Shown here: one piece after another, positions 1,293-9,238 of the stretch | Layout of the letters: each line of letters starts with the position of its first letter | Position numbering within the stretch: position 1 is the stretch's first letter | Assembly: GCA_022825195.1 (NCBI GenBank) | Contig: JAJDYL010000103.1 | Location: forward strand, 7,874-71,873 | Length of the DNA: 64,000 nt | Source: Alphaproteobacteria bacterium | GTDB taxonomy: Bacteria > Pseudomonadota > Alphaproteobacteria > Bin95 | Direction: 5' to 3' | Made by a program: the position numbers and the translations under genes | Notes under the pieces: model-generated | The model's input: the letters and a program-made list of their open reading frames with translations, nothing else | Told to the model about the DNA's origin: nothing | Database searches by the model: none

Positions 1293-2243
1293 TCAGGCGG
1301 CGGAGACGGACCCGAATTCCCTTTGCTGCGCGCGCGCCACTTTGCGAACGGTTTCGGCGAAGAACCTGAAAGCGGAAATGTCCCAGGCCGAAATGCGCGA
1401 GACGATACCGGCGCGCAACCGGGTCCTGCCGAAGTCGAGCGGCAGAGGCTTGAGGCGGGGGCCGGGGATCCTGCCGAGGAACGCGACCGGGAGTCGGGAC
1501 AGGTAAGGCCCCGTGCCCATCAGCGCCAGGCCCGCGGGACCGGCGCGGACGACTGTGCCCACGCGTTTTCCGGTTCTGGCGAAGAGTTCGTTGAGCAGTG
1601 TCGCCAGGGGCGGCTGTTCCTCGTCATCCCGCGTTCTCGCGGGAGCTTCGCAGTCGATCCAGGGCCAGTCGGCCAGGTCGTCGCAGGTTGTCTTTTCGGT
1701 GTGAAGCGGGTGGTCCGAGCGGGCGACGATGCGCGATGTCATGTTGAAGAAGCTTTCGCGCCGCAGGATCGCCGGGAGGAGCCGTTCGGCGTCGATGCGG
1801 CCGCAATGGAGATCGCTCTCGCCGTTGACGAGCAGGCGGATACCCTCGGGGAATGTCATGGCATGGAGCCTGAGCTCGACGTTCGGGAAGGCCTCATGAA
1901 ATCTGGCGACGACCTCGGGCATGACCGCCTGCATCCATGTCGGGCCTGCGGTGACCCGCAGGCCGCTGGAATGGCCCGACAGCGCCGACTTGACCCTGCC
2001 TTCGGCGGTCTCGATCTCGTGCAGGATGTGGCGGGCCTGATCTGCGGCCGTGGCGCCGAATTCGGTAAGGCGGACGCCTGTCGGGAGCCGTTCGAACAGC
2101 TTTCCGCCGAATGCCGCCTCGAGCCGGGCGATGGCGCGCGACAATGCCGGTTGCGTCATTGCGATCCGGTCCGCCGCGCCCAGAACCGTGCCGGTTTCCG
2201 CAACAATGAGGAACTTCTTCAGGTCGCTGCGCTTTTCGAACAT
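1293..2243 (-). CDS. LysR-family transcriptional regulator
   Basis: N-terminal HTH (…GAADRIAMTQPALSRAIARLE…) plus LysR substrate-binding domain; GGAGAG RBS 8 nt upstream of the ATG. Confidence 0.9.
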   Translation of the reverse strand: MFEKRSDLKKFLIVAETGTVLGAADRIAMTQPALSRAIARLEAAFGGKLFERLPTGVRLTEFGATAADQARHILHEIETAEGRVKSALSGHSSGLRVTAGPTWMQAVMPEVVARFHEAFPNVELRLHAMTFPEGIRLLVNGESDLHCGRIDAERLLPAILRRESFFNMTSRIVARSDHPLHTEKTTCDDLADWPWIDCEAPARTRDDEEQPPLATLLNELFARTGKRVGTVVRAGPAGLALMGTGPYLSRLPVAFLGRIPGPRLKPLPLDFGRTRLRAGIVSRISAWDISAFRFFAETVRKVARAQQREFGSVSAA

Positions 2244-2760
2244 GCCGGCTTCTCTCCTTCGGCAGTCCGGAAGGAATCTTTGACATGCTATATATGTATA
2301 TGGCCGATGAAGTTAAGGGTGATAACATGGGTTTTTCGGTAAATTACACGAGTTTGTGAACATATTTTAACTCATAAGAATAGCCTATATGGCCTATAGG
2401 TTTTTCTCTTGAAACTCACAAGAAGGGGCAGAAGCAGCTATTATATTCGAATTATTACCTTATGTATTTCTCGCATAAAATTCGTTTATAGGCATTTCCG
2501 AAAGGGAGCATATACGCAGCCCTCTTGCCGTCATGCCCTGAGCTTATCTAAGGGGGCGTTCGGGCATGACGGAAAGAGAGCCGGGACGCCGGAGGCATCC
2601 TTCGCAACGAGCATGTCCAGGGCGCTGTCGGCGCCCATGGCTCCCCTGGCCGCCGACCCGAACGGAGTTATCCTTTCCGGGCATGTGCCGGCTGCCGACC
2701 GGAAGCTCCTGCCGTCCGACGAAGTCCCCTGCCGCCCGATGCAGAGGCGAGGATTGTCCG
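2244..2760. promoter_or_regulatory. AT-rich non-coding island containing the lysR promoter/RBS, a CCTATA-N5-TATAGG palindrome (2384-2400) and an 11-bp-stem hairpin (2527-2572)
   Basis: Visibly AT-rich versus its flanks; TTGACA at 2280 followed by TATATAT-rich sequence. The hairpin is inverted GCCGTCATGCC/GGCATGACGG(a). Confidence 0.6.
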
Positions 2761-3285
2761 TTACGAACTGCTGATGGCGGCAAGGATGGGCCGGATGGCG
2801 CGGTCGGCGATGTCCGCCAGTTCGTCCGGCGTGCGGTTCTGGATCGGATGGTCCACGAACACCACGGCCGGACGCACGCCCATGGCGTCGGCCTGCGCCG
2901 TCGCGGCGTCCCGGAACTCGACGGTCGCTACCGCGCAGCCGGGCATCCCCAGGCGATCGAGCTCGTTCATGTCATGCAAACTGCACGACGTGCACGAGCC
3001 TCAGTCCGCCAGCCCTTCGACAACGATGTCGCAGCGCTCCACAAGGTCCTGGATGACGCCGCGGGGAGCCGGCTTGGTGTGTGTCGGCTTGGCGAAGCGG
3101 AGCACGTTCAGGCCCCGCACCGCGAGCCGTTGCTCCACCGTGTCGAGAAACTCCACCGACCGCTCCTTGCCGATGGAAAGCAGGCCGATGGTGAGGCCGT
3201 CGAGACTCGTCGGCGGAACGACGGGCTGGCGCATGACCGGCTCCGTCTCCGCCGTCGGGTCTCGCATCGCATAGGGTTCCGTCAT
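2761..3285 (-). CDS. UGSC-motif (seleno)protein; in-frame TGA at 3001-3003 read as selenocysteine
   Basis: ORFs 3001..3342(-) and 2761..2979(-) are in the same frame and join across a single TGA, giving …VVEGLAD-U-GSCTSCSLHDMNELD…. The likely start is the internal ATG at 3283-3285 (MTEPYAMRDP…), which overlaps the upstream gene's stop as ATGA. Confidence 0.65.
2955..3000 (-). other. candidate SECIS-like stem-loop immediately 3' of the in-frame UGA
   Basis: mRNA reads UGA-GGCUCGU[GCAC-GUC-GUGC…CAUGACAUG]ACGAGCU. A 7-bp outer stem starts 1 nt after the UGA and encloses shorter internal pairings. Confidence 0.4.
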
Positions 3286-4886
3286 GTACCGATCTCCTTG
3301 GTTACAGGGTCCACCTGGCCGGCAATCCGCATTCCGGACCATCCGCCGATCACCGCCGAGAACAGGCCCGCCGGCCCGCCGGCGCGCGCGATGATGAATG
3401 TGCCTTCGCGGAATTTGTCGATCATTTCATCCTCGCGGCCGGGGTCTATCCCCTCGGCCAGTCCGCCCGCCCCCCGCACGACCTCGCTTCCGGGGCGCTT
3501 GAGGGCAGAGATGAGGGCGTCCTCGATCTCGCTGCGGCCCCAGCCGTCGTCCTTGTAGATTGCATGGTGCTCGGGCGAGAGCACCAGCAGGGCTCCGCCG
3601 AATTCGCAGAGCTTCGGGTGGTTCACGTTCCACAGGTAGCGGACCAGCGAGGCCGTCAGTTCTTCCGCCGTCCGGCTTTTCTGGTCCACGAACCCGCTCA
3701 CCCCTTCGCCGTGGAACAGGGTGACGGCCGATGCGCCCGGCCGGATGCCGCGCGAGACCGAAAGCGGCGTCCAGTCCGGGTCGGTCTCGTCCTCGGCGAA
3801 GCAGAAGGTGTATTTGCCCGGATTGCCCTGCATTGCGCGGTCGATTTCGCCCGGCCGGCCGCCGCCGACATTGCGGATGATGAGCTGGAAGGCCCGGCCG
3901 ATGGTCGCGTTGGCCCGGTTGCCCTGGCCGAGCGCGTTCAGGCCCCAGTTCATGCCGATGCGCCGCGCGACGGGGCCGTTCACGATGATGACCGGCCCGG
4001 CGAAATGGGTCGTGCAGAGCAGGCCGTGCATGGAGAAGCCCGGTATCAGCGCCGCTTCGACCGCCGCGAGAACGGTCGGGAAATATTCGGGCCGGCAGCC
4101 GGCCATCACGGCATTGATGGCCGCCTTCTCCACGGTGCAGGGCGCGAGGTTGGGCGGAATATCCCCGATAATTTCGTCCGCCGCCCGCGTCGTGCCCGCC
4201 AGCATCCGCGCGACGCGCAGGTCGGTCGGCGGCACGATCGGCAGCCCGTCCGTCCAGCCGCGGTCGAAGGCCGTCTCCATCGGGTCGTCATGGTCCTCCA
4301 CGACGATCCGGCGCGCCGAAAGCGGGATGTCGCCGAACCGCACGGCCAGCCTCTCCGGCATCCCGAATTCGACCGACAGAGACCCGCATCCGGGCTGGTT
4401 GTCCGGCAGGCTCTCGCCGAGATCGGCGCGGCCTGTCAGTGCGCGCCACTCGGCCTTGTTCCATCCGATCGCACGTTCGGCTTCGCTGCCGCCGCTGAAG
4501 CGGATCAGCGTCGGCACGGTCTCGATGTCGAGCCGGTAGGAGAGCTCCAGGTCGCCGTCATGCCGGGGGGCCGCACCCTCGGGAAAGGCGGGATCGTCCT
4601 GCGTGACCGCTACGGCGCCCCCCGCCGCCAGTTCCGCAAGGAGCGGCGCAACGAGGACGCAGGTCGGGCAGTCCCGCTTGACCACGGCAAGCAGGCCGTC
4701 GGAAGGAAGGGCGTCGCGCCAGCCGGTCACTCGTCCGTCTCCATGTTCGGTATGCGCAGTCTGCACGGAATCCGCACCGGACTCCAATTTTCGCCGGTCG
4801 CTTTGATAAAGTGTTTGCCAAGTGTATCTGTACACGGTACACCTTGGGGCAAATCCATAATGTCTGGTTGCGTGAAGTTTCGACAC
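3282..4886 (-). CDS. thioredoxin/glutaredoxin-like CxxC domain fused to a large uncharacterised C-terminal domain; true start uncertain
   Basis: …LLAVVKRDCPTCVLVAPLL… is a CPxC redox motif in a beta-strand/helix context. The stop is ATGA-coupled to the UGSC gene. The annotated GTG start lies inside the higB remnant, so the real start is probably further in. Confidence 0.6.
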   Translation of the reverse strand: MSKLHATRHYGFAPRCTVYRYTWQTLYQSDRRKLESGADSVQTAHTEHGDGRVTGWRDALPSDGLLAVVKRDCPTCVLVAPLLAELAAGGAVAVTQDDPAFPEGAAPRHDGDLELSYRLDIETVPTLIRFSGGSEAERAIGWNKAEWRALTGRADLGESLPDNQPGCGSLSVEFGMPERLAVRFGDIPLSARRIVVEDHDDPMETAFDRGWTDGLPIVPPTDLRVARMLAGTTRAADEIIGDIPPNLAPCTVEKAAINAVMAGCRPEYFPTVLAAVEAALIPGFSMHGLLCTTHFAGPVIIVNGPVARRIGMNWGLNALGQGNRANATIGRAFQLIIRNVGGGRPGEIDRAMQGNPGKYTFCFAEDETDPDWTPLSVSRGIRPGASAVTLFHGEGVSGFVDQKSRTAEELTASLVRYLWNVNHPKLCEFGGALLVLSPEHHAIYKDDGWGRSEIEDALISALKRPGSEVVRGAGGLAEGIDPGREDEMIDKFREGTFIIARAGGPAGLFSAVIGGWSGMRIAGQVDPVTKEIGT

Positions 4887-5065
4887 AAAGGGCTACAAGC
4901 GTTCTTCGAGCGGGACGAAGCTCGGCGCCTGCCCGGATACCTCTCCATGCCCTGAAGGGCGACCGGCGGGGCCAGTGGAGCATCCGCGTGTCCGGCAATT
5001 GGCGCGTCACCTGTCGCTTCGTCGAAGGTGGGGCCGTCGATATCGATCCGGTCGACTACCATTAG
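4860..5065 (+). pseudogene. higB: higB (HigB/RelE-type killer protein) remnant, frameshifted and shortened
   Basis: The N-terminal MSGCVKFRHKGLQAFFERDEARRLPGY is in one frame. The C-terminal …LHALKGDRRGQWSIRVSGNWRVTCRFVEGGAVDIDPVDYH is in another frame. Total length is about 206 nt against about 280 nt for intact HigB. Confidence 0.6.
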
Positions 5066-5077
5066 GGAGAGACGCCA

Positions 5078-5350
5078 ATGACCGACGCGATGATGAACCC
5101 GTCCCATCCGGGAGAAACGATCCGTGATTGCATCGAGGAAATGGGTTGGACCGTGACATATGCCGCCGGACAGTTGGGCGTGGCGAGGCATACCCTCTCG
5201 CGCCTGCTCAACGGCCATTCGGGTGTTTCGCCGTCGATGGCGCTGGCGCTGGAGCGGGTCGGCTGGAGCAATGCCGGTTTCTGGATGCGGCGGCAGGCCT
5301 CCTGGGACCTGGCGCAGGCAAGGTTGCGCGAAAGCACCAGAGCCGCGTGA
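5078..5350 (+). CDS. higA: HigA-family antitoxin (XRE HTH)
   Basis: …NPSHPGETIRDCIEEMGWTVTYAAGQLGVARHTLSRLLNGHSGVSPSMALALE… is the classic HigA HTH, 12 nt after the higB remnant. Confidence 0.85.
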   Translation: MTDAMMNPSHPGETIRDCIEEMGWTVTYAAGQLGVARHTLSRLLNGHSGVSPSMALALERVGWSNAGFWMRRQASWDLAQARLRESTRAA

Positions 5351-5432
5351 CAAGCGGAACTTGCTGCGAGCGTCCCAATAGCGAAATTCGGATGATTTCA
5401 GGCCGGACCGAAACCGTCACTCTGCTCGTTGC

Positions 5433-7058
5433 TCACAGTGCCGGCGCGCCTTGCATCGAAACCGTATCCGCCTCCATCGCCTCGGCCATGCGGCGCAGTT
5501 CGGCTTTCTGGATCTTGGTGCCGTTGGCGCTGTAGGTGACGGGGAAGGCGTCTATGGCGGCGGCTCGGACCGGGACCTTGTAGTTGGCCATGGTCTCGCG
5601 GCACCAGGCGAGAAGCGCGGCTTCGTCGTAGAAGGGTTTCCCCGCCGGGCGCACGAAGGCGAAGGCGCGGGGCCCTCGCGGGGTGGCGACGCCGACGACC
5701 TGGCAGCCGGCGACCGAAGGATGGGTCTCGATATGCGCCTCGATCTCGCTCGGGGCCGTAAGGAAGCCGGCGAGTCGCAGCGTGTCGCCCATGCGCGCCT
5801 CATAGATGAAGCTGCCGTCGGCGCGCATCCGCCCGGCATCCCCCGTGCGCAGGAAGCCGTCTTCGGTCATTGCCGCCGCTGTCGCTTCCGGGTTGCTCTC
5901 ATAGCGGAGGAACAGGCTGGGGCAGCGCATTTCGACTTCGCCCGAGACGCCCGGCGGGCAGAGTTCGCCGGTCTCGACATTGCGCACCCGGACGGCGGCT
6001 TCGGGCGCCACCGGATAGCCGCCGCCGGCAAGGCGGTCCTCCAGCGGCGCGTCGATCTTCTGGACGGCCATCAGCGCGCCCACCTCGCTCATGCCGTAAA
6101 GGCCGATCAGCGGCACGCCGCGCGCGAGCGTCCGAGCCGCGAAATCCTCCAGGGTCGGGTTGAACAGGGCGTAGCCGCACAATCTGAGGCTGGGGAAGGG
6201 GATCGGTTCCTCCCGCAGGGCCAGCATGCCGGCATACATGTCGTCCGTGCCCATGAAATGGGTGACCTTGTGGCGGCGCACGGCCTCGGCGGCCTCGCCC
6301 GGCGTGAACAGCGGCGCCAGCACGTTCGGCGCGCCCGCGGCCGCCGTCGCCATCATGGTCGAGAAGCCGAACACCCCGCAAAGCGGCGTCGCCTGGTAGC
6401 TCGCCGCGCCCGCCCGGTCCCAGCCGAAGGCGGCAACGCAGTCGCGGGCATGGCGCGTGACCGGCGCCTGTCCATGCAGCACGAATTTGGGTTTCGAGGT
6501 CGTGCCGGAGGTGGTGAAGACGTTGCAGGGGTCGTCCGGCGTTGCGCGGTCCCCGGCCATCGGGAGCGCCTCGAACAGTGTCCGCACCGCCGTCGCGGGC
6601 TTGCCGGCCACCCGCTCCGGAACCGCAGCCTCGCCCTCGTCGTAGACCAGCACCCGCTCAAGGCCGGACAACGCCTCGTAACCGATCTCCGCCAGCAGGC
6701 CGGCAAAGTCGATATCCTTGAAGCCCGGCCACATGGCGAGCGCCTTCGCGCCCGACCGCGACAGGATGTCCGCGACCTCCAGCGCCCGGAAGCGGGTGTT
6801 GACCGCGACGGCGACTGCGCCGAGGCGTCCGAGCGCGAAGTAGAGCGCGAGCCAGGCCGGCACGTTCGGCAACCAGAGCGCGACCTTGTCGCCGCGCCCG
6901 ATTCCGAGACCCGCCAATGCGGATGCGGCCCGGCGCGACCGGTCGAGCAGGTCGCCGTAGCTCCAGCTCCCGCCGCCATAGAGCAGCGCCGGCGCGTCCC
7001 CGGCTTCCGCGGCGACGCGCTCAAGCAGCGCGGAGAGGGTCTCCCGCTTCCCGGTCAT
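5433..7058 (-). CDS. AMP-dependent synthetase/ligase (acyl-CoA synthetase family)
   Basis: AMP-binding motif TSGTTSKPK and C-terminal lysine region; start overlaps the upstream stop by 4 nt. Confidence 0.9.
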   Translation of the reverse strand: MTGKRETLSALLERVAAEAGDAPALLYGGGSWSYGDLLDRSRRAASALAGLGIGRGDKVALWLPNVPAWLALYFALGRLGAVAVAVNTRFRALEVADILSRSGAKALAMWPGFKDIDFAGLLAEIGYEALSGLERVLVYDEGEAAVPERVAGKPATAVRTLFEALPMAGDRATPDDPCNVFTTSGTTSKPKFVLHGQAPVTRHARDCVAAFGWDRAGAASYQATPLCGVFGFSTMMATAAAGAPNVLAPLFTPGEAAEAVRRHKVTHFMGTDDMYAGMLALREEPIPFPSLRLCGYALFNPTLEDFAARTLARGVPLIGLYGMSEVGALMAVQKIDAPLEDRLAGGGYPVAPEAAVRVRNVETGELCPPGVSGEVEMRCPSLFLRYESNPEATAAAMTEDGFLRTGDAGRMRADGSFIYEARMGDTLRLAGFLTAPSEIEAHIETHPSVAGCQVVGVATPRGPRAFAFVRPAGKPFYDEAALLAWCRETMANYKVPVRAAAIDAFPVTYSANGTKIQKAELRRMAEAMEADTVSMQGAPAL

Positions 7059-8083
7059 GCCCGGACGAAACGGAAGACGTCGTCGGGTCCCCGCTCGCGC
7101 TCGACACGGCCCCCATGCCAGAGATTGTGGAGATGGGCGATGGCTTCGCCGATGGCGAAGGACTGCTGGTGCAGGTCGAGCGGGCGGTGGAAGAAGACCG
7201 GCAGCAGGTCGATGGCGTGTTGCGGTTCCGCCAGCGCTTCGCAGCCGTCGTCGAGGCGGACCCGGTGGTGGTCGCGAAGCTGGGCCAGCCGCTCATGCAG
7301 GCCATAGAACGGGCGGTCGTGGCTGCAGAGCGTGAAGGTGTCGTCGGGCAGGTGGGCAAAGGCGCGGGTGCTGTCCAGGAAGTGTTGCAGCGGGTCGCCG
7401 TCGGGCTCGACGAAATGCACGGACACATTGGTCGTGATGCGCGGCAGCACCTGGTCGCCGGAGATCAGCAGCTTCGACTCCGGGCAGGCGAGGCAGACAT
7501 GCTCCGGCGAATGGCCCGAGCCGATGATCGCCTGCCATTCCCGCTCGCCGATGCGGATGCGGTCGCCATGCTGGATGCGGTGATAGACGATGGGCGGGCG
7601 GACCACGTTCTGGGCGTAGAAATTCCCGCGCCCGCGCATGGCGTCCACCGTCGAGGTGGCCATGCCGTTGCGCCGCCAGAAGCGCAGCATCTCCTCCATG
7701 TTGCGTTCTCTGGCGTCGAAGGCGAAATGCGACCAGAGCCATTCCGAAAGGCTCATCCAGAGCTCGGCTTCGGGGAAGCGCGTCAGCAGCCATTGCGCGA
7801 GGCCCATATGGTCCGGGTGGAAATGCGTGACGAGCACGCGGCGCACCGGCCGCCCGGCCAGCAGCGTCCGGATCAGCGTCTCCCAGATGTCGCGGACACC
7901 ATCCTTGTTGAGCCCGCAATCGACGACGGTCCAGCCGTCGCCGTCCTCCAGCAGGTATAGGTTGATGTGGTCGAGAACGAAGGGCAGCGGCATCCGCACC
8001 CACCAGATCCCCTCCGCCACCTGCCGCGCCGCGCCTTCCGGCGGCGGCTCGTCATAGGGGTACTCGACGACGACGGCGTTCAC
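7055..8083 (-). CDS. MBL-fold metallo-hydrolase
   Basis: HFHPDHMG metal-binding motif. Start trimmed to the GTG (VNAVVVEYPYDEPP…) that overlaps the ubiK stop as GTGA; the ORF-track 5' extension is low-complexity. Confidence 0.75.
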   Translation of the reverse strand: MNAVVVEYPYDEPPPEGAARQVAEGIWWVRMPLPFVLDHINLYLLEDGDGWTVVDCGLNKDGVRDIWETLIRTLLAGRPVRRVLVTHFHPDHMGLAQWLLTRFPEAELWMSLSEWLWSHFAFDARERNMEEMLRFWRRNGMATSTVDAMRGRGNFYAQNVVRPPIVYHRIQHGDRIRIGEREWQAIIGSGHSPEHVCLACPESKLLISGDQVLPRITTNVSVHFVEPDGDPLQHFLDSTRAFAHLPDDTFTLCSHDRPFYGLHERLAQLRDHHRVRLDDGCEALAEPQHAIDLLPVFFHRPLDLHQQSFAIGEAIAHLHNLWHGGRVERERGPDDVFRFVRA

Positions 8084-8355
8084 TTGCCGGTTTCTGCCAG
8101 CCGGGCCTCCAGGGCGGCCACGCGCGCTTCGAGCCGTTCCTGCTCCATGCGCGCGTTCTGCGCCATCTCCTGCACGGCCTCGAAATCCTCGCGCCGCACC
8201 AGGTCCATCGAATCGAGCATGCTCTGCAGGCGGTCGCGCACCATCGACTCCATCTCGTCGCGAACGGCGCCGGCCGCGCCGGCCGCGCCCGAGGCCACGC
8301 GGGCCAGATCGTCGAAGATTCGCTTTCCGGTTTGCATGGGTCCGACTCCGGGCAT
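8080..8355 (-). CDS. ubiK: ubiquinone biosynthesis accessory factor UbiK (YqiC-like coiled-coil protein)
   Basis: MQTGKRIFDDLARVASGAAGAAGAVRDE…LEARVAALEARL resembles the UbiK/YqiC family. Confidence 0.75.
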   Translation of the reverse strand: MPGVGPMQTGKRIFDDLARVASGAAGAAGAVRDEMESMVRDRLQSMLDSMDLVRREDFEAVQEMAQNARMEQERLEARVAALEARLAETGK

Positions 8356-8446
8356 AGCTTCTCGACCGCGCCGACAGGATGGGCCATGAAATGATGCTTG
8401 TCACGGGAGATCCTGCCGCCTTGCCAGGGCTGGCGAAGCCCCGGTC

Positions 8447-9238
8447 GTGATTCTTCCTGTCATTCCGTTCCCGGCCATCGACCCGGTCGCGGTAGAGCTG
8501 GGGCCGCTGGCGATTCGCTGGTATGCGCTGGCCTATCTCGTCGGCCTGATCGCCGGCTGGCGCCTTGCGCGCCGCCTTGCCGCCCTGCCGCCGCGGCCGA
8601 TGCGTCCCGAGCGCGTGGACGACCTGCTGGCCTGGATGGTGCTGGGCGTGGTGGCCGGGGGGCGGCTCGGCTACGTGCTGTTCTACAAGCCCGGCTACTA
8701 TCTCCAGAATCCGGGCGAGGCGCTGTTCCTGTGGCAGGGCGGCATGTCGTTCCACGGCGGCATGGCCGGCGTTGCGCTCGCAGTCTTCCTGTTCGCGCGC
8801 CGGCATGACCTGCCGTTCCTGCGGGTGGGCGATATCGTGGCGGCGGTCACCCCCCTGGGCCTGTTCCTCGGGCGGCTCGCCAATTTCGTGAACGGCGAGC
8901 TCTACGGCCGGGCGTCCGACGTCTCCTGGGCGATGGTCTTTCCCTCGGACCCGGCGCAGGTGCCGCGCCACCCGAGCCAGCTCTACGAAGCGGCGCTGGA
9001 AGGCCTGGCGCTCGGAGCGGTCATGCTGGCGCTGGCGTTCAGCGAGCGGGTGAGGGCGCGCCCCGGCCTGCTGGCGGGCGTCTTCATGCTCGGCTACGGG
9101 CTCGCGCGGTCCTTCGTCGAGTTCTTTCGCGAGCCGGACGCGCATCTCGGGTTCATCCTGGGGCCGGTCACCATGGGGCAGTTATTGTCCCTGCCGCTGA
9201 TCGTCGCCGGCCTCTTCCTGCTGGTCCGCAGGCCGTGA
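8447..9238 (+). CDS. lgt: prolipoprotein diacylglyceryl transferase
   Basis: Lgt signature, polytopic membrane protein (…QGGMSFHGGMAGV…HPSQLYEA…). Confidence 0.9.
   Translation: MILPVIPFPAIDPVAVELGPLAIRWYALAYLVGLIAGWRLARRLAALPPRPMRPERVDDLLAWMVLGVVAGGRLGYVLFYKPGYYLQNPGEALFLWQGGMSFHGGMAGVALAVFLFARRHDLPFLRVGDIVAAVTPLGLFLGRLANFVNGELYGRASDVSWAMVFPSDPAQVPRHPSQLYEAALEGLALGAVMLALAFSERVRARPGLLAGVFMLGYGLARSFVEFFREPDAHLGFILGPVTMGQLLSLPLIVAGLFLLVRRP

Follow-up and report, generated by a model that had tools for sequence, protein, structure and literature searches.

Several reductases carry a fused thioredoxin-fold recycling module, as in the thioredoxin-MsrA/B (PilB) and Prx-Grx proteins, and the grd operons of the GrdB/PrdB systems encode a thioredoxin system of their own. 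From 2007 to a 2026 review, the UGSC selenoproteins (PF24696, NF041046) are described as stand-alone proteins of unknown function, for which a thioredoxin-like fold has been guessed. Zhang and Gladyshev (2008; PMC2398784) reported a UGSC fusion to an unnamed domain, 'Unknown_1', with a conserved cysteine.

The locus studied here lies in a window of 64,000 nucleotides of alphaproteobacterial DNA (contig JAJDYL010000103.1), numbered from its first letter. It contains a UGSC gene and, directly upstream, a gene for a thioredoxin-fold fusion protein whose C-terminal domain (the C-domain) is also found naturally fused to UGSC, as was the unnamed domain of PMC2398784. Unlike the stand-alone, thioredoxin-like UGSC of the literature, UGSC is here predicted to be flavodoxin/Rossmann-like, and it has a constant partner domain that carries exchangeable reductant modules. 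The arrangement also differs from PilB and Prx-Grx in its unclassified partner domain, its separate selenoprotein subunit and an extra conserved cysteine in a PGCGS linker motif. With the GrdB/PrdB systems it shares a UxxC selenocysteine (Sec), probably placed after a beta-strand, weak similarity around the Sec, a separate larger partner subunit and an associated thioredoxin-type reductant; in contrast to GrdB, UGSC has only about 170 residues, without the N-terminal ~330 residues of GrdB, and in contrast to Grd/Prd its partner has no GrdE/PrdA similarity and GrdA, GrdC and GrdD are absent.

Two overlapping genes and their upstream boundary

The genes and the DNA that precedes them are arranged as follows.

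2761..3285, minus strand: gene for a 174-aa selenoprotein of the UGSC family, Sec at codon 95 (PF24696 at 1.7e-34; NF041046)
3282..3285, minus strand: ATGA stop/start overlap of the two genes (read from the sequence)
3282..4730, minus strand: gene for the thioredoxin-linker-C-domain protein, 482 aa, GTG start at 4730, TGA stop at 3284-3282 (homologue lengths, P0001, L002/L003)
4731..4886, minus strand: 52 spurious codons at the N-terminal end of the mechanical ORF (covered by no homologue; DNA absent from L002/L003)
4743..5472, plus strand: strain-specific insertion with a degraded higB (about 4868-5065) and higA (5078-5350) (no homology to L001-L003)

An earlier note on this DNA had read the upstream gene as a 534-aa ORF (3282..4886, minus strand), doubting its GTG start inside a degraded higB. 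The ORF exists, but the true gene is shorter. The best 120 homologues of the ORF are all 466–488 aa long and cover only 87–90% of it; the closest of them, P0001 (91% identical), has the N terminus MTGWRDAL, matching the GTG at 4730; and DNA homology to the syntenic relatives L002 and L003 stops at window positions 4742 and 4724, respectively. The gene therefore spans 3282..4730 and encodes 482 aa, which settles the start at GTG 4730, with GGAG 8 nt upstream. The 534-aa reading was rejected, its extra 52 codons lying inside a higBA insertion that close relatives lack. This insertion parts the gene pair from an upstream AMP-ligase gene, which in L002 and L003 ends 45–57 nt before the pair. The higB is indeed a remnant, in which positions 49–91 of the PF05015 profile alone survive, with a frame change, and higA matches HTH_3. 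No terminator came out of a promoter and terminator scan of positions 2200–5400, and its single weak site lies on the wrong strand; an Rfam scan gave noise only.

The stop/start overlap was also read correctly: the ATG of the UGSC gene occupies 3285-3283, preceded by AGGAG 8 nt upstream, and shares its last two nucleotides with the TGA of the fusion-protein gene.

The downstream gene is a UGSC selenoprotein

Identification of the downstream gene as UGSC was borne out by an in-frame TGA in D-U-G-S-C and by PF24696, matched over positions 2–170 of 172 with 119.8 bits (cut-off 25). NF041046 reaches 120.2 bits, slightly below its equivalog cut-off of 125. Two features concern Sec decoding.

3001..3003, minus strand: in-frame TGA, selenocysteine of D-U-G-S-C (motif LAD-U-GSCTSC)
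2955..3006, minus strand: SECIS-like stem-loop directly after the UGA, with an apical 7-bp hairpin at 2972-2988 and a GUU loop (from folding)

The stem-loop folds with an energy of −35.5 kcal/mol (z −3.9), and its apical loop has a G 20 nt after the UGA, as in SECIS elements of the bacterial type. Among orthologous loci the Sec codon is TGA in 71 and a cysteine codon (TGC/TGT) in 7. The apical hairpin is retained in all 36 aligned Sec forms, with a GU/GC/AU exchange at one pair, and is missing from the 7 Cys forms, where other codons are used. Conservation of the hairpin in TGA forms only supports Sec decoding.

The structure predicted for UGSC is a flavodoxin-like alpha/beta domain with U-G-S-C at the start of a helix, the predicted topology consisting of beta-alpha repeats with flavodoxin/Rossmann-like matches. 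Many UGSC-C-domain fusions carry CGTS instead of CGSC, and so an intramolecular U..C pair is not universal.

The upstream gene joins a thioredoxin-like domain to an unmodelled family

The 482-aa protein consists of a thioredoxin-fold domain, a probably flexible linker and a C-domain of ~340 aa (AF2 model, pLDDT 87.7).

4416..4730, minus strand: thioredoxin-fold domain, about residues 1-105, with the cis-Pro loop V72-P73-T74
4659..4670, minus strand: CPTC redox motif, C21 and C24 (read from the sequence; conservation in 121 sequences)
4380..4394, minus strand: PGCGS motif with C115 in the low-confidence linker (conserved in 121 sequences; 79 of 80 loci)
3285..4313, minus strand: C-domain, about residues 140-482, unmodelled family, with AVMAGC (C212, codon 4095-4097) and FCFAEDE (C310)

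The N-terminal domain combines a thioredoxin fold with a CxxC at the CGPC position and a cis-Pro loop. The CPTC had earlier been placed in a thioredoxin/glutaredoxin-like context, and phmmer sets C-P-T-C on the C-G-P-C of 1rqm/1nsw; in the same alignments the loop ietVPTLirf falls on imsIPTLilf. C21, P73 and T74 are invariant among 121 sequences and C24 is at least 90% conserved; in the set of 80 loci it takes the form CxTC, with CPTC in 51, CETC in 19 and other variants in 10. Curated thioredoxin thresholds are not reached: TIGR01068 has a cut-off of 96.8 bits but scores 14.8 here, and no Pfam thioredoxin model matches at E≤1. The domain is thus divergent and thioredoxin-like, not a canonical thioredoxin, and may act as a disulfide oxidoreductase.

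The linker that carries PGCGS is probably flexible, as modelled by AF2 (pLDDT 59–81 around residues 120–170). Its residues P113, G114, C115 and G116 are nevertheless invariant in the 121 sequences. PGCG recurs in all but one of the 80 loci, and PGCGS is restricted to the thioredoxin-fused and redoxin-fused forms.

The C-domain corresponds to the stretch of about 400 aa that could not at first be assigned to any family, and it has stayed without a match. Pfam and NCBIfam searches at E≤1 to 10 yielded nothing (no Pfam match at E≤1, NCBIfam noise), whether the queries were the window protein, 10+10 of its distant relatives or 45 fusion proteins. Sequence searches of the PDB, run with the protein by itself and with the profiles A4 and A5, gave only noise for this domain. 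Neither the profile nor the PDB sequence searches matched it to a well-known unrelated enzyme family, the outcome that the earlier note had named as speaking against a redox pair. The family is large, with 5827 representative clusters. C310 is invariant and C212 at least 90% conserved in the 121 sequences; the AGC cysteine shows no variation among the 45 fusion proteins and is at least 90% conserved in a wider set of 116 sequences. The AGC or FCF cysteine is missing in some members (P0226, P0216). Pyruvoyl-type cleavage between the glycine and cysteine of AVMAGC was considered and rejected, as there was no evidence for it. The C-domain is probably the 'Unknown_1' of Zhang and Gladyshev (2008), with which, by comparison of descriptions only, it shares fusion to UGSC, occurrence on its own and a conserved cysteine.

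The constant partner of UGSC is the C-domain

Conservation of the neighbourhood, which the earlier note had proposed as a check, is nearly universal. UGSC lies directly downstream on the same strand in 78/78 informative genome loci (those with enough sequence), which span at least 8 phyla, and the 482-aa product is 61–91% identical across phyla. In a metagenome search anchored on UGSC, the C-domain gene is directly upstream in about 52 of the 56 loci that have at least 600 nt of upstream sequence. A CxxC thioredoxin domain is present in every full-coverage locus of this search, the reverse of UGSC genes that never adjoin a CxxC protein. The two genes could overlap at an ATGA in 52 of 76 genome loci, and in 39 of 57 from metagenomes. 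Clustering of all ORFs of the 80 loci gave no third conserved gene and only clade-specific synteny, in the Reyranella group. The pairing is far beyond chance, and the data support the two genes being a dedicated, co-inherited and usually translationally coupled pair.

The two products also occur as single polypeptides. UGSC-C-domain fusions include P0216, P0288 and about 45 others, and the reverse order, C-domain-UGSC cut off at the Sec codon, is seen in P0237 and P0253. The AF2 model of one natural fusion is confident throughout (pLDDT 94.1, pTM 0.92). The N-terminal module, moreover, varies. P0131 and P0136 have an AhpC/redoxin-like module instead. In a sister group (P0160, P0389-P0394), whose genes also adjoin Sec-UGSC, the thioredoxin domain is replaced by the catalytic chain of ferredoxin:thioredoxin reductase (PF02943; 2.2e-21 in P0160). 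PF02943 is not part of the window protein and is relevant only as a sign that the N-terminal position holds an electron-input module. In loci L165 and L166 UGSC lies beside a C-domain gene with a ferredoxin:thioredoxin-reductase module; in L161 and L163 UGSC stands beside a C-domain gene without any thioredoxin domain or fused reductant; and L167 has a stand-alone C-domain gene with no UGSC within 3 kb.

These arrangements revise the earlier proposal of a thiol/selenol redox pair. A co-inherited pair stands on the genome loci, but the CxxC module is not the core partner, as L161, L163, L165, L166 and the fusions show: the constant partner of UGSC is the C-domain. Fusions in both orders, together with UGSC beside C-domain genes that lack thioredoxin, make the CxxC module one of several interchangeable electron-input modules. 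The L161 and L163 pairs, which have no fused reductant, show that the core does not require the thioredoxin module.

A candidate two-subunit oxidoreductase and its alternatives

The pair probably encodes a thiol/selenol oxidoreductase of two subunits whose built-in electron-input module can be swapped. The sequences are best read as a thiol/selenol redox relay, and from them we infer the redox chemistry as well as complex formation, the direction of electron flow and the pairing of residues. The conserved core would be the ~340-aa C-domain bound to UGSC. Each turnover would oxidize the selenol, which would form a selenenylsulfide inside UGSC or become bonded to the conserved AVMAGC cysteine of the C-domain. 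The N-terminal CPTC module, perhaps via the PGCGS linker cysteine, would then re-reduce it, and the thioredoxin reductase of the cell would in turn recharge this module. The stop/start overlap may serve co-translation of both subunits.

A more specific version of this explanation, rather than a contradiction of it, is that UGSC acts as a selenoprotein B (GrdB/PrdB), its selenol attacking a small molecule held by the C-domain as a stand-in for GrdE/PrdA, with the fused thioredoxin reducing the Se-S bond. We regard this as a tentative possibility. NCBIfam models for GrdB, GrdF, GrdH and PrdB match around the Sec in 14 of 25 UGSC proteins and 15 of 45 fused UGSC domains (best E 5e-4), yet these matches are local, about 65 residues around the Sec, and reach ~14 bits against cut-offs of 602–800; PF07355, which with TIGR01917/01918 represents the selenoprotein B family, does not match UGSC. 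An hhalign comparison with a GOS GrdB read places U on U and GIP on GIS but is not significant (E 0.073, probability below 1%). The built-in reductant parallels the thioredoxin system of grd operons, whereas the C-domain has no similarity to the Gly_reductase family of Pfam (GrdE/PrdA, PF09338) at E≤10 in 45 members and no sign of a pyruvoyl-forming cleavage site, no conserved equivalents of GrdA, GrdC, GrdD or GrdE/PrdA lie nearby in the 80 clustered loci, and the hosts are mostly aerobes. Speculatively, the pair could represent a new selenoenzyme class, widespread in aerobic soil, freshwater and marine bacteria, in which a minimal GrdB/PrdB-like Sec domain is docked on a catalytic subunit with a fold not in the PDB. 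It would cleave a bond in a small molecule reductively, drawing electrons from the fused thioredoxin-, redoxin- or ferredoxin:thioredoxin-reductase-like module with PGCGS as a swinging shuttle.

It is rather unlikely that the pair detoxifies peroxide or repairs oxidative damage, as a Se-dependent peroxidase or a sulfoxide/disulfide repair reductase in which the oxidant or damaged substrate oxidizes the Sec and the thioredoxin module returns it to the reduced state. Such a housekeeping defence role would suit the variable genomic context. An AhpC/TSA-redoxin module does replace thioredoxin in some relatives, but these AhpC-like modules have CxxC/CxxT at the thioredoxin position and may therefore serve as reductants only. 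An OsmC-like putative selenoprotein just upstream of UGSC in L163/L164 and, in L165, an AhpC-TSA gene that lies downstream of the FTR-fused C-domain gene at a distance of about 2.3 kb also fit such a role but are isolated cases, and simple peroxidase chemistry needs no extra domain of ~340 aa.

Handling of metals, metalloids or Se/S, in which the cysteines and Sec of UxxC, CxxC and PGCGS would serve as ligands or carriers of Hg, As, Cu, Se or persulfide without electron cycling, is improbable. UxxC and CxxC are also metal-binding motifs, and several selenoproteins with proposed metal roles are listed in reviews; here, however, the CxxC belongs to a canonical thioredoxin fold that has its cis-Pro loop, the modules fused in its stead (the ferredoxin:thioredoxin reductase chain among them) are dedicated disulfide reductases, and no metal-resistance genes recur nearby. 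Finally, although the mechanical ORF was over-extended by 52 codons into inserted DNA, incidental adjacency of an annotation artefact and UGSC without joint function is refuted by the conservation of the pair in genomes and metagenomes, the identity of the 482-aa product across phyla and the fusions in both orders.

Implications for the UGSC family

The UGSC family and its 2008 fusion were already known; the systematic UGSC/C-domain pairing and the modular reductant are undescribed in the literature searched. UGSC is essentially never alone, and its partner belongs to a large family without a Pfam, NCBIfam or PDB counterpart, to which different disulfide-reducing modules have repeatedly been joined in evolution. 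The label 'thioredoxin family protein' for this partner masks about 70% of the protein, and the C-domain family merits a profile model and a structure. With the pairing, the partner family and the modules in hand, the role of a selenoprotein of unknown function becomes directly testable.

A conserved two-gene unit

The gene for a C-terminal domain of about 340 aa (C-domain), here fused behind a thioredoxin-like module and a linker, and the gene for the selenoprotein UGSC together are the conserved unit. In the window, both lie on the minus strand:

2761..3285, minus strand: UGSC gene (PF24696, 1.7e-34)
3003-3001, minus strand: Sec codon, an in-frame TGA in the motif LAD-U-GSCTSC
3282..4730, minus strand: thioredoxin-fusion gene, 482 aa, GTG start at 4730
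3282..4886, minus strand: mechanical ORF, 534 aa, present in the window; its first 52 codons lie outside the gene
4743-5472: inserted segment of ~730 bp, absent from loci L002 and L003, bearing a higB remnant and higA

A genome scan with the thioredoxin-fusion protein, one genome per species, gave >585 relatives. The best 80 loci, which were used here, span Alpha-, Beta- and Gammaproteobacteria, Gemmatimonadota (Longimicrobiales), Chloroflexota, Acidobacteriota, Nitrospirales, Bacteroidota and others. The reverse scan, of metagenomes from UGSC, gave 80 loci, about 56 of them with at least 600 nt upstream. Both sets comprise closest relatives only, so the pairing counts describe this subfamily: a same-strand UGSC gene lies downstream in 78 of the 78 genome loci having downstream sequence (within about 100 nt in 76), and a C-domain gene lies directly upstream of UGSC in about 52 of about 56 metagenome loci. 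In the window, UGSC adjoins the CxxC fusion gene, as the earlier note described. Two further metagenome loci have the C-domain gene nearby, with one inserted gene (L116) or altered order (L131), and it is missing upstream in two, L126 (behind an IS transposase) and L138. Every UGSC-anchored metagenome locus with full upstream coverage carries a thioredoxin domain with CxxC. The overlap of fusion-gene stop and UGSC start as ATGA at 3282-3285 was read correctly before; an AGGAG lies 8 nt upstream, and such an overlap is possible in 52 of 76 loci. Clustering of all ORFs in the 80 genome loci revealed no third conserved gene beyond 17 loci of one clade.

A Rhodospirillaceae MAG (L058) has tandem Sec-UGSC genes, 7491-8012 and 8044-8556, after the thioredoxin-fusion gene. 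At L167, a stand-alone C-domain gene (3001-4035) is an exception to the pairing, with UGSC absent within 3 kb on either side.

UGSC is a genuine selenoprotein

Among the 78 genome loci, 71 have TGA as the Sec codon and 7 have TGC/TGT in its place. A stem-loop 3' of the window UGA (-35.5 kcal/mol, z -3.9) includes an apical 7-bp hairpin (2972-2988) with a GUN loop. This hairpin is kept in 36/36 aligned Sec-form orthologues, with GU/GC/AU exchange at one pair, and is absent from all seven Cys-form orthologues, which use other codons for this stretch of peptide; the window gene is therefore a genuine selenoprotein gene. The hairpin lies within coding sequence, AGU NUG CAU forming the 3' arm of the stem in Sec forms, and the peptide over it reads CTSCSLHD in Sec forms whereas Cys forms have CTSCSTHD. 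The SECIS hairpin seems to fix an amino acid of UGSC. All seven Cys-form genes (L017, L018, L037, L057, L061, L062 and L066) are partnered by a CETC or CDTC thioredoxin motif, never CPTC.

The UGSC family is likely to be widely mis-annotated, since the window protein scores 120.2 bits against the NF041046 equivalog, narrowly missing the cut-off of 125, and gene callers break Sec-UGSC genes into two products (L161, L163-L166). Between the UGSC stop and a LysR-type regulator gene (1293-2243, same strand) is a ~517-bp gap (2244-2760) with no predicted terminator, Rfam match or convincing ORF; the corresponding gap in L002 is only about 190 nt long.

Start of the fusion gene

The 534-aa ORF described earlier exists, but the gene does not include its 52 N-terminal codons. 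Searched against 5.8 billion proteins, this ORF has at least 8000 relatives; the top 120 among them are all 466-488 aa long and 61-91% identical, and cover just 87-90% of it. P0001, the closest relative among the matches listed, has the N-terminus MTGWRDAL, equivalent to the GTG at 4730, and, at the DNA level, homology with syntenic L002 and L003 ends at window positions 4742 and 4724, respectively. The gene is therefore 3282..4730, with GGAG 8 nt 5' of its GTG. The start, previously doubted as lying within a degraded higB, is now settled, and higB is indeed a remnant: PF05015 profile positions 49-91 alone remain, and a frame change is present. In L002 and L003, only 45-57 nt separate the end of an AMP-dependent ligase gene from the thioredoxin-fusion gene; the higB/higA insertion probably severed the window pair from an upstream promoter. 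L001 has another, ~540-bp filler at this site.

The C-domain lies outside known families

The window protein, whose relatives bear the database name 'thioredoxin family protein', comprises:

Residues 1 to about 105: thioredoxin-like domain, by phmmer alignment to solved thioredoxins
Residues about 105-170: linker, low-confidence model (pLDDT 59-81)
Residues about 140-482: C-domain, very strongly conserved

In the phmmer alignment, C-P-T-C is aligned with the C-G-P-C motif of solved thioredoxins, and V-P-T with their cis-Pro loop; the domain is divergent, below Pfam and NCBIfam thioredoxin thresholds. The linker carries an invariant P-G-C-G motif (C115), found in 79/80 loci.

C-domain motifs include DGLPxxPPT, NAVMAGC, GQGNRANATIGRA, RNVGGGxPG, PGKYxFCFAEDE and AGG. 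The earlier failure to assign this part to a family is borne out: no Pfam or NCBIfam model matches in 45 relatives at thresholds as loose as E<=10, nor does its profile match PDB sequences. The best Foldseek E is 8.5e-4, with TM <=0.20 for model 2, the one of higher confidence. The family comprises 5827 representative clusters (E<=1e-3, library clustered at 50% identity) and takes several forms:

C-domain alone: about 340-375 aa
With thioredoxin-like module: as in the window protein
With AhpC/TSA-redoxin module: relatives P0131, P0136, P0226
With ferredoxin:thioredoxin reductase catalytic chain: P0160 (PF02943, 2.2e-21)
UGSC fused at the C-domain N-terminus: P0216, P0288, about 45 others
UGSC fused at the C-domain C-terminus: P0237, P0253; called protein stops at the Sec codon

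The N-terminal position of C-domain proteins is thus a site of interchangeable disulfide-reducing modules, the PGCGS cysteine being confined to thioredoxin- and redoxin-module forms. Sec-UGSC also lies directly upstream of stand-alone (L161, L163/L164) and reductase-fused (L165, L166) C-domain genes; it is therefore the C-domain that is the constant partner of UGSC. A natural UGSC-C-domain fusion was modelled with high confidence as a single body (pLDDT 94.1, pTM 0.92).

Relatives P0159, P0189, P0209, P0218, P0224 and P0243 (about 710-740 aa) match over two or three stretches, contain no Pfam domain, and look like tandem C-domain duplications or like fusions with an additional unknown region. 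In L163 (1764-2255; also L164), an OsmC-like ORF that contains an in-frame TGA (…SIGF-U-LLT…, UxxT motif) and is called as two small genes adjoins the Sec-UGSC and stand-alone C-domain genes immediately upstream and is probably a second selenoprotein of the cluster.

A putative thiol/selenol reductase

The two genes are co-inherited and often translationally coupled, their products are naturally fused, and the thioredoxin module, which looks redox-competent, is replaced by other reductants in relatives. The C-domain and UGSC would join in a complex, in which the selenol would be oxidised in turnover and then reduced again by the N-terminal module. The likeliest direction of electron flow is towards the UGSC/C-domain centre, because ferredoxin:thioredoxin reductase physiologically reduces disulfides. 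CGTS replaces CGSC in many Cys-form fusions, so an intramolecular U..C pair is not universal. The AVMAGC cysteine is a candidate bonding partner of the selenol; it is invariant in 45 fusions and at least 90% conserved in both the wider 116-sequence alignment and the thioredoxin-fusion subfamily.

UGSC members show weak local matches near Sec to models of GrdB, GrdF, GrdH and PrdB, selenoprotein B of glycine, sarcosine, betaine and D-proline reductases (14/25 and 15/45 members; best E 5e-4), and hhalign against a GOS GrdB read places U on U without significance (E 0.073). These sequence matches are a lead, pointing to glycine/proline-reductase-like chemistry and not to family membership. The C-domain shows no relation to GrdE/PrdA, the pyruvoyl partner of GrdB/PrdB, and genomic context gave no consistent substrate hint. 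We infer that UGSC and the C-domain form a thiol/selenol reductase whose thioredoxin-fold reductant is built in, and a catalytic core of a new kind is a real possibility. The CxxC/UxxC redox pair proposed earlier is partly supported: it still explains the observations best, with the amendment that UGSC has the unassigned domain, not CxxC, as its essential partner.

Since 2007-2008, UGSC has figured in the literature as an abundant selenoprotein without a known function, and it is still uncharacterised according to a 2026 review; a 'UGSC/Unknown_1' fusion was noted earlier (PMC2398784). The modelling does not support the thioredoxin-like fold that was conjectured for UGSC in 2008 (PMC2398784); its matches are to the whole fusion model, with the residues covered not specified. 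The searched literature contained no description of near-obligate UGSC/C-domain pairing across phyla or of a modular electron-input position on the C-domain, nor the point that this domain has no family or fold assignment. The window pair is an ordinary member of its family; the family itself is now a tractable problem.
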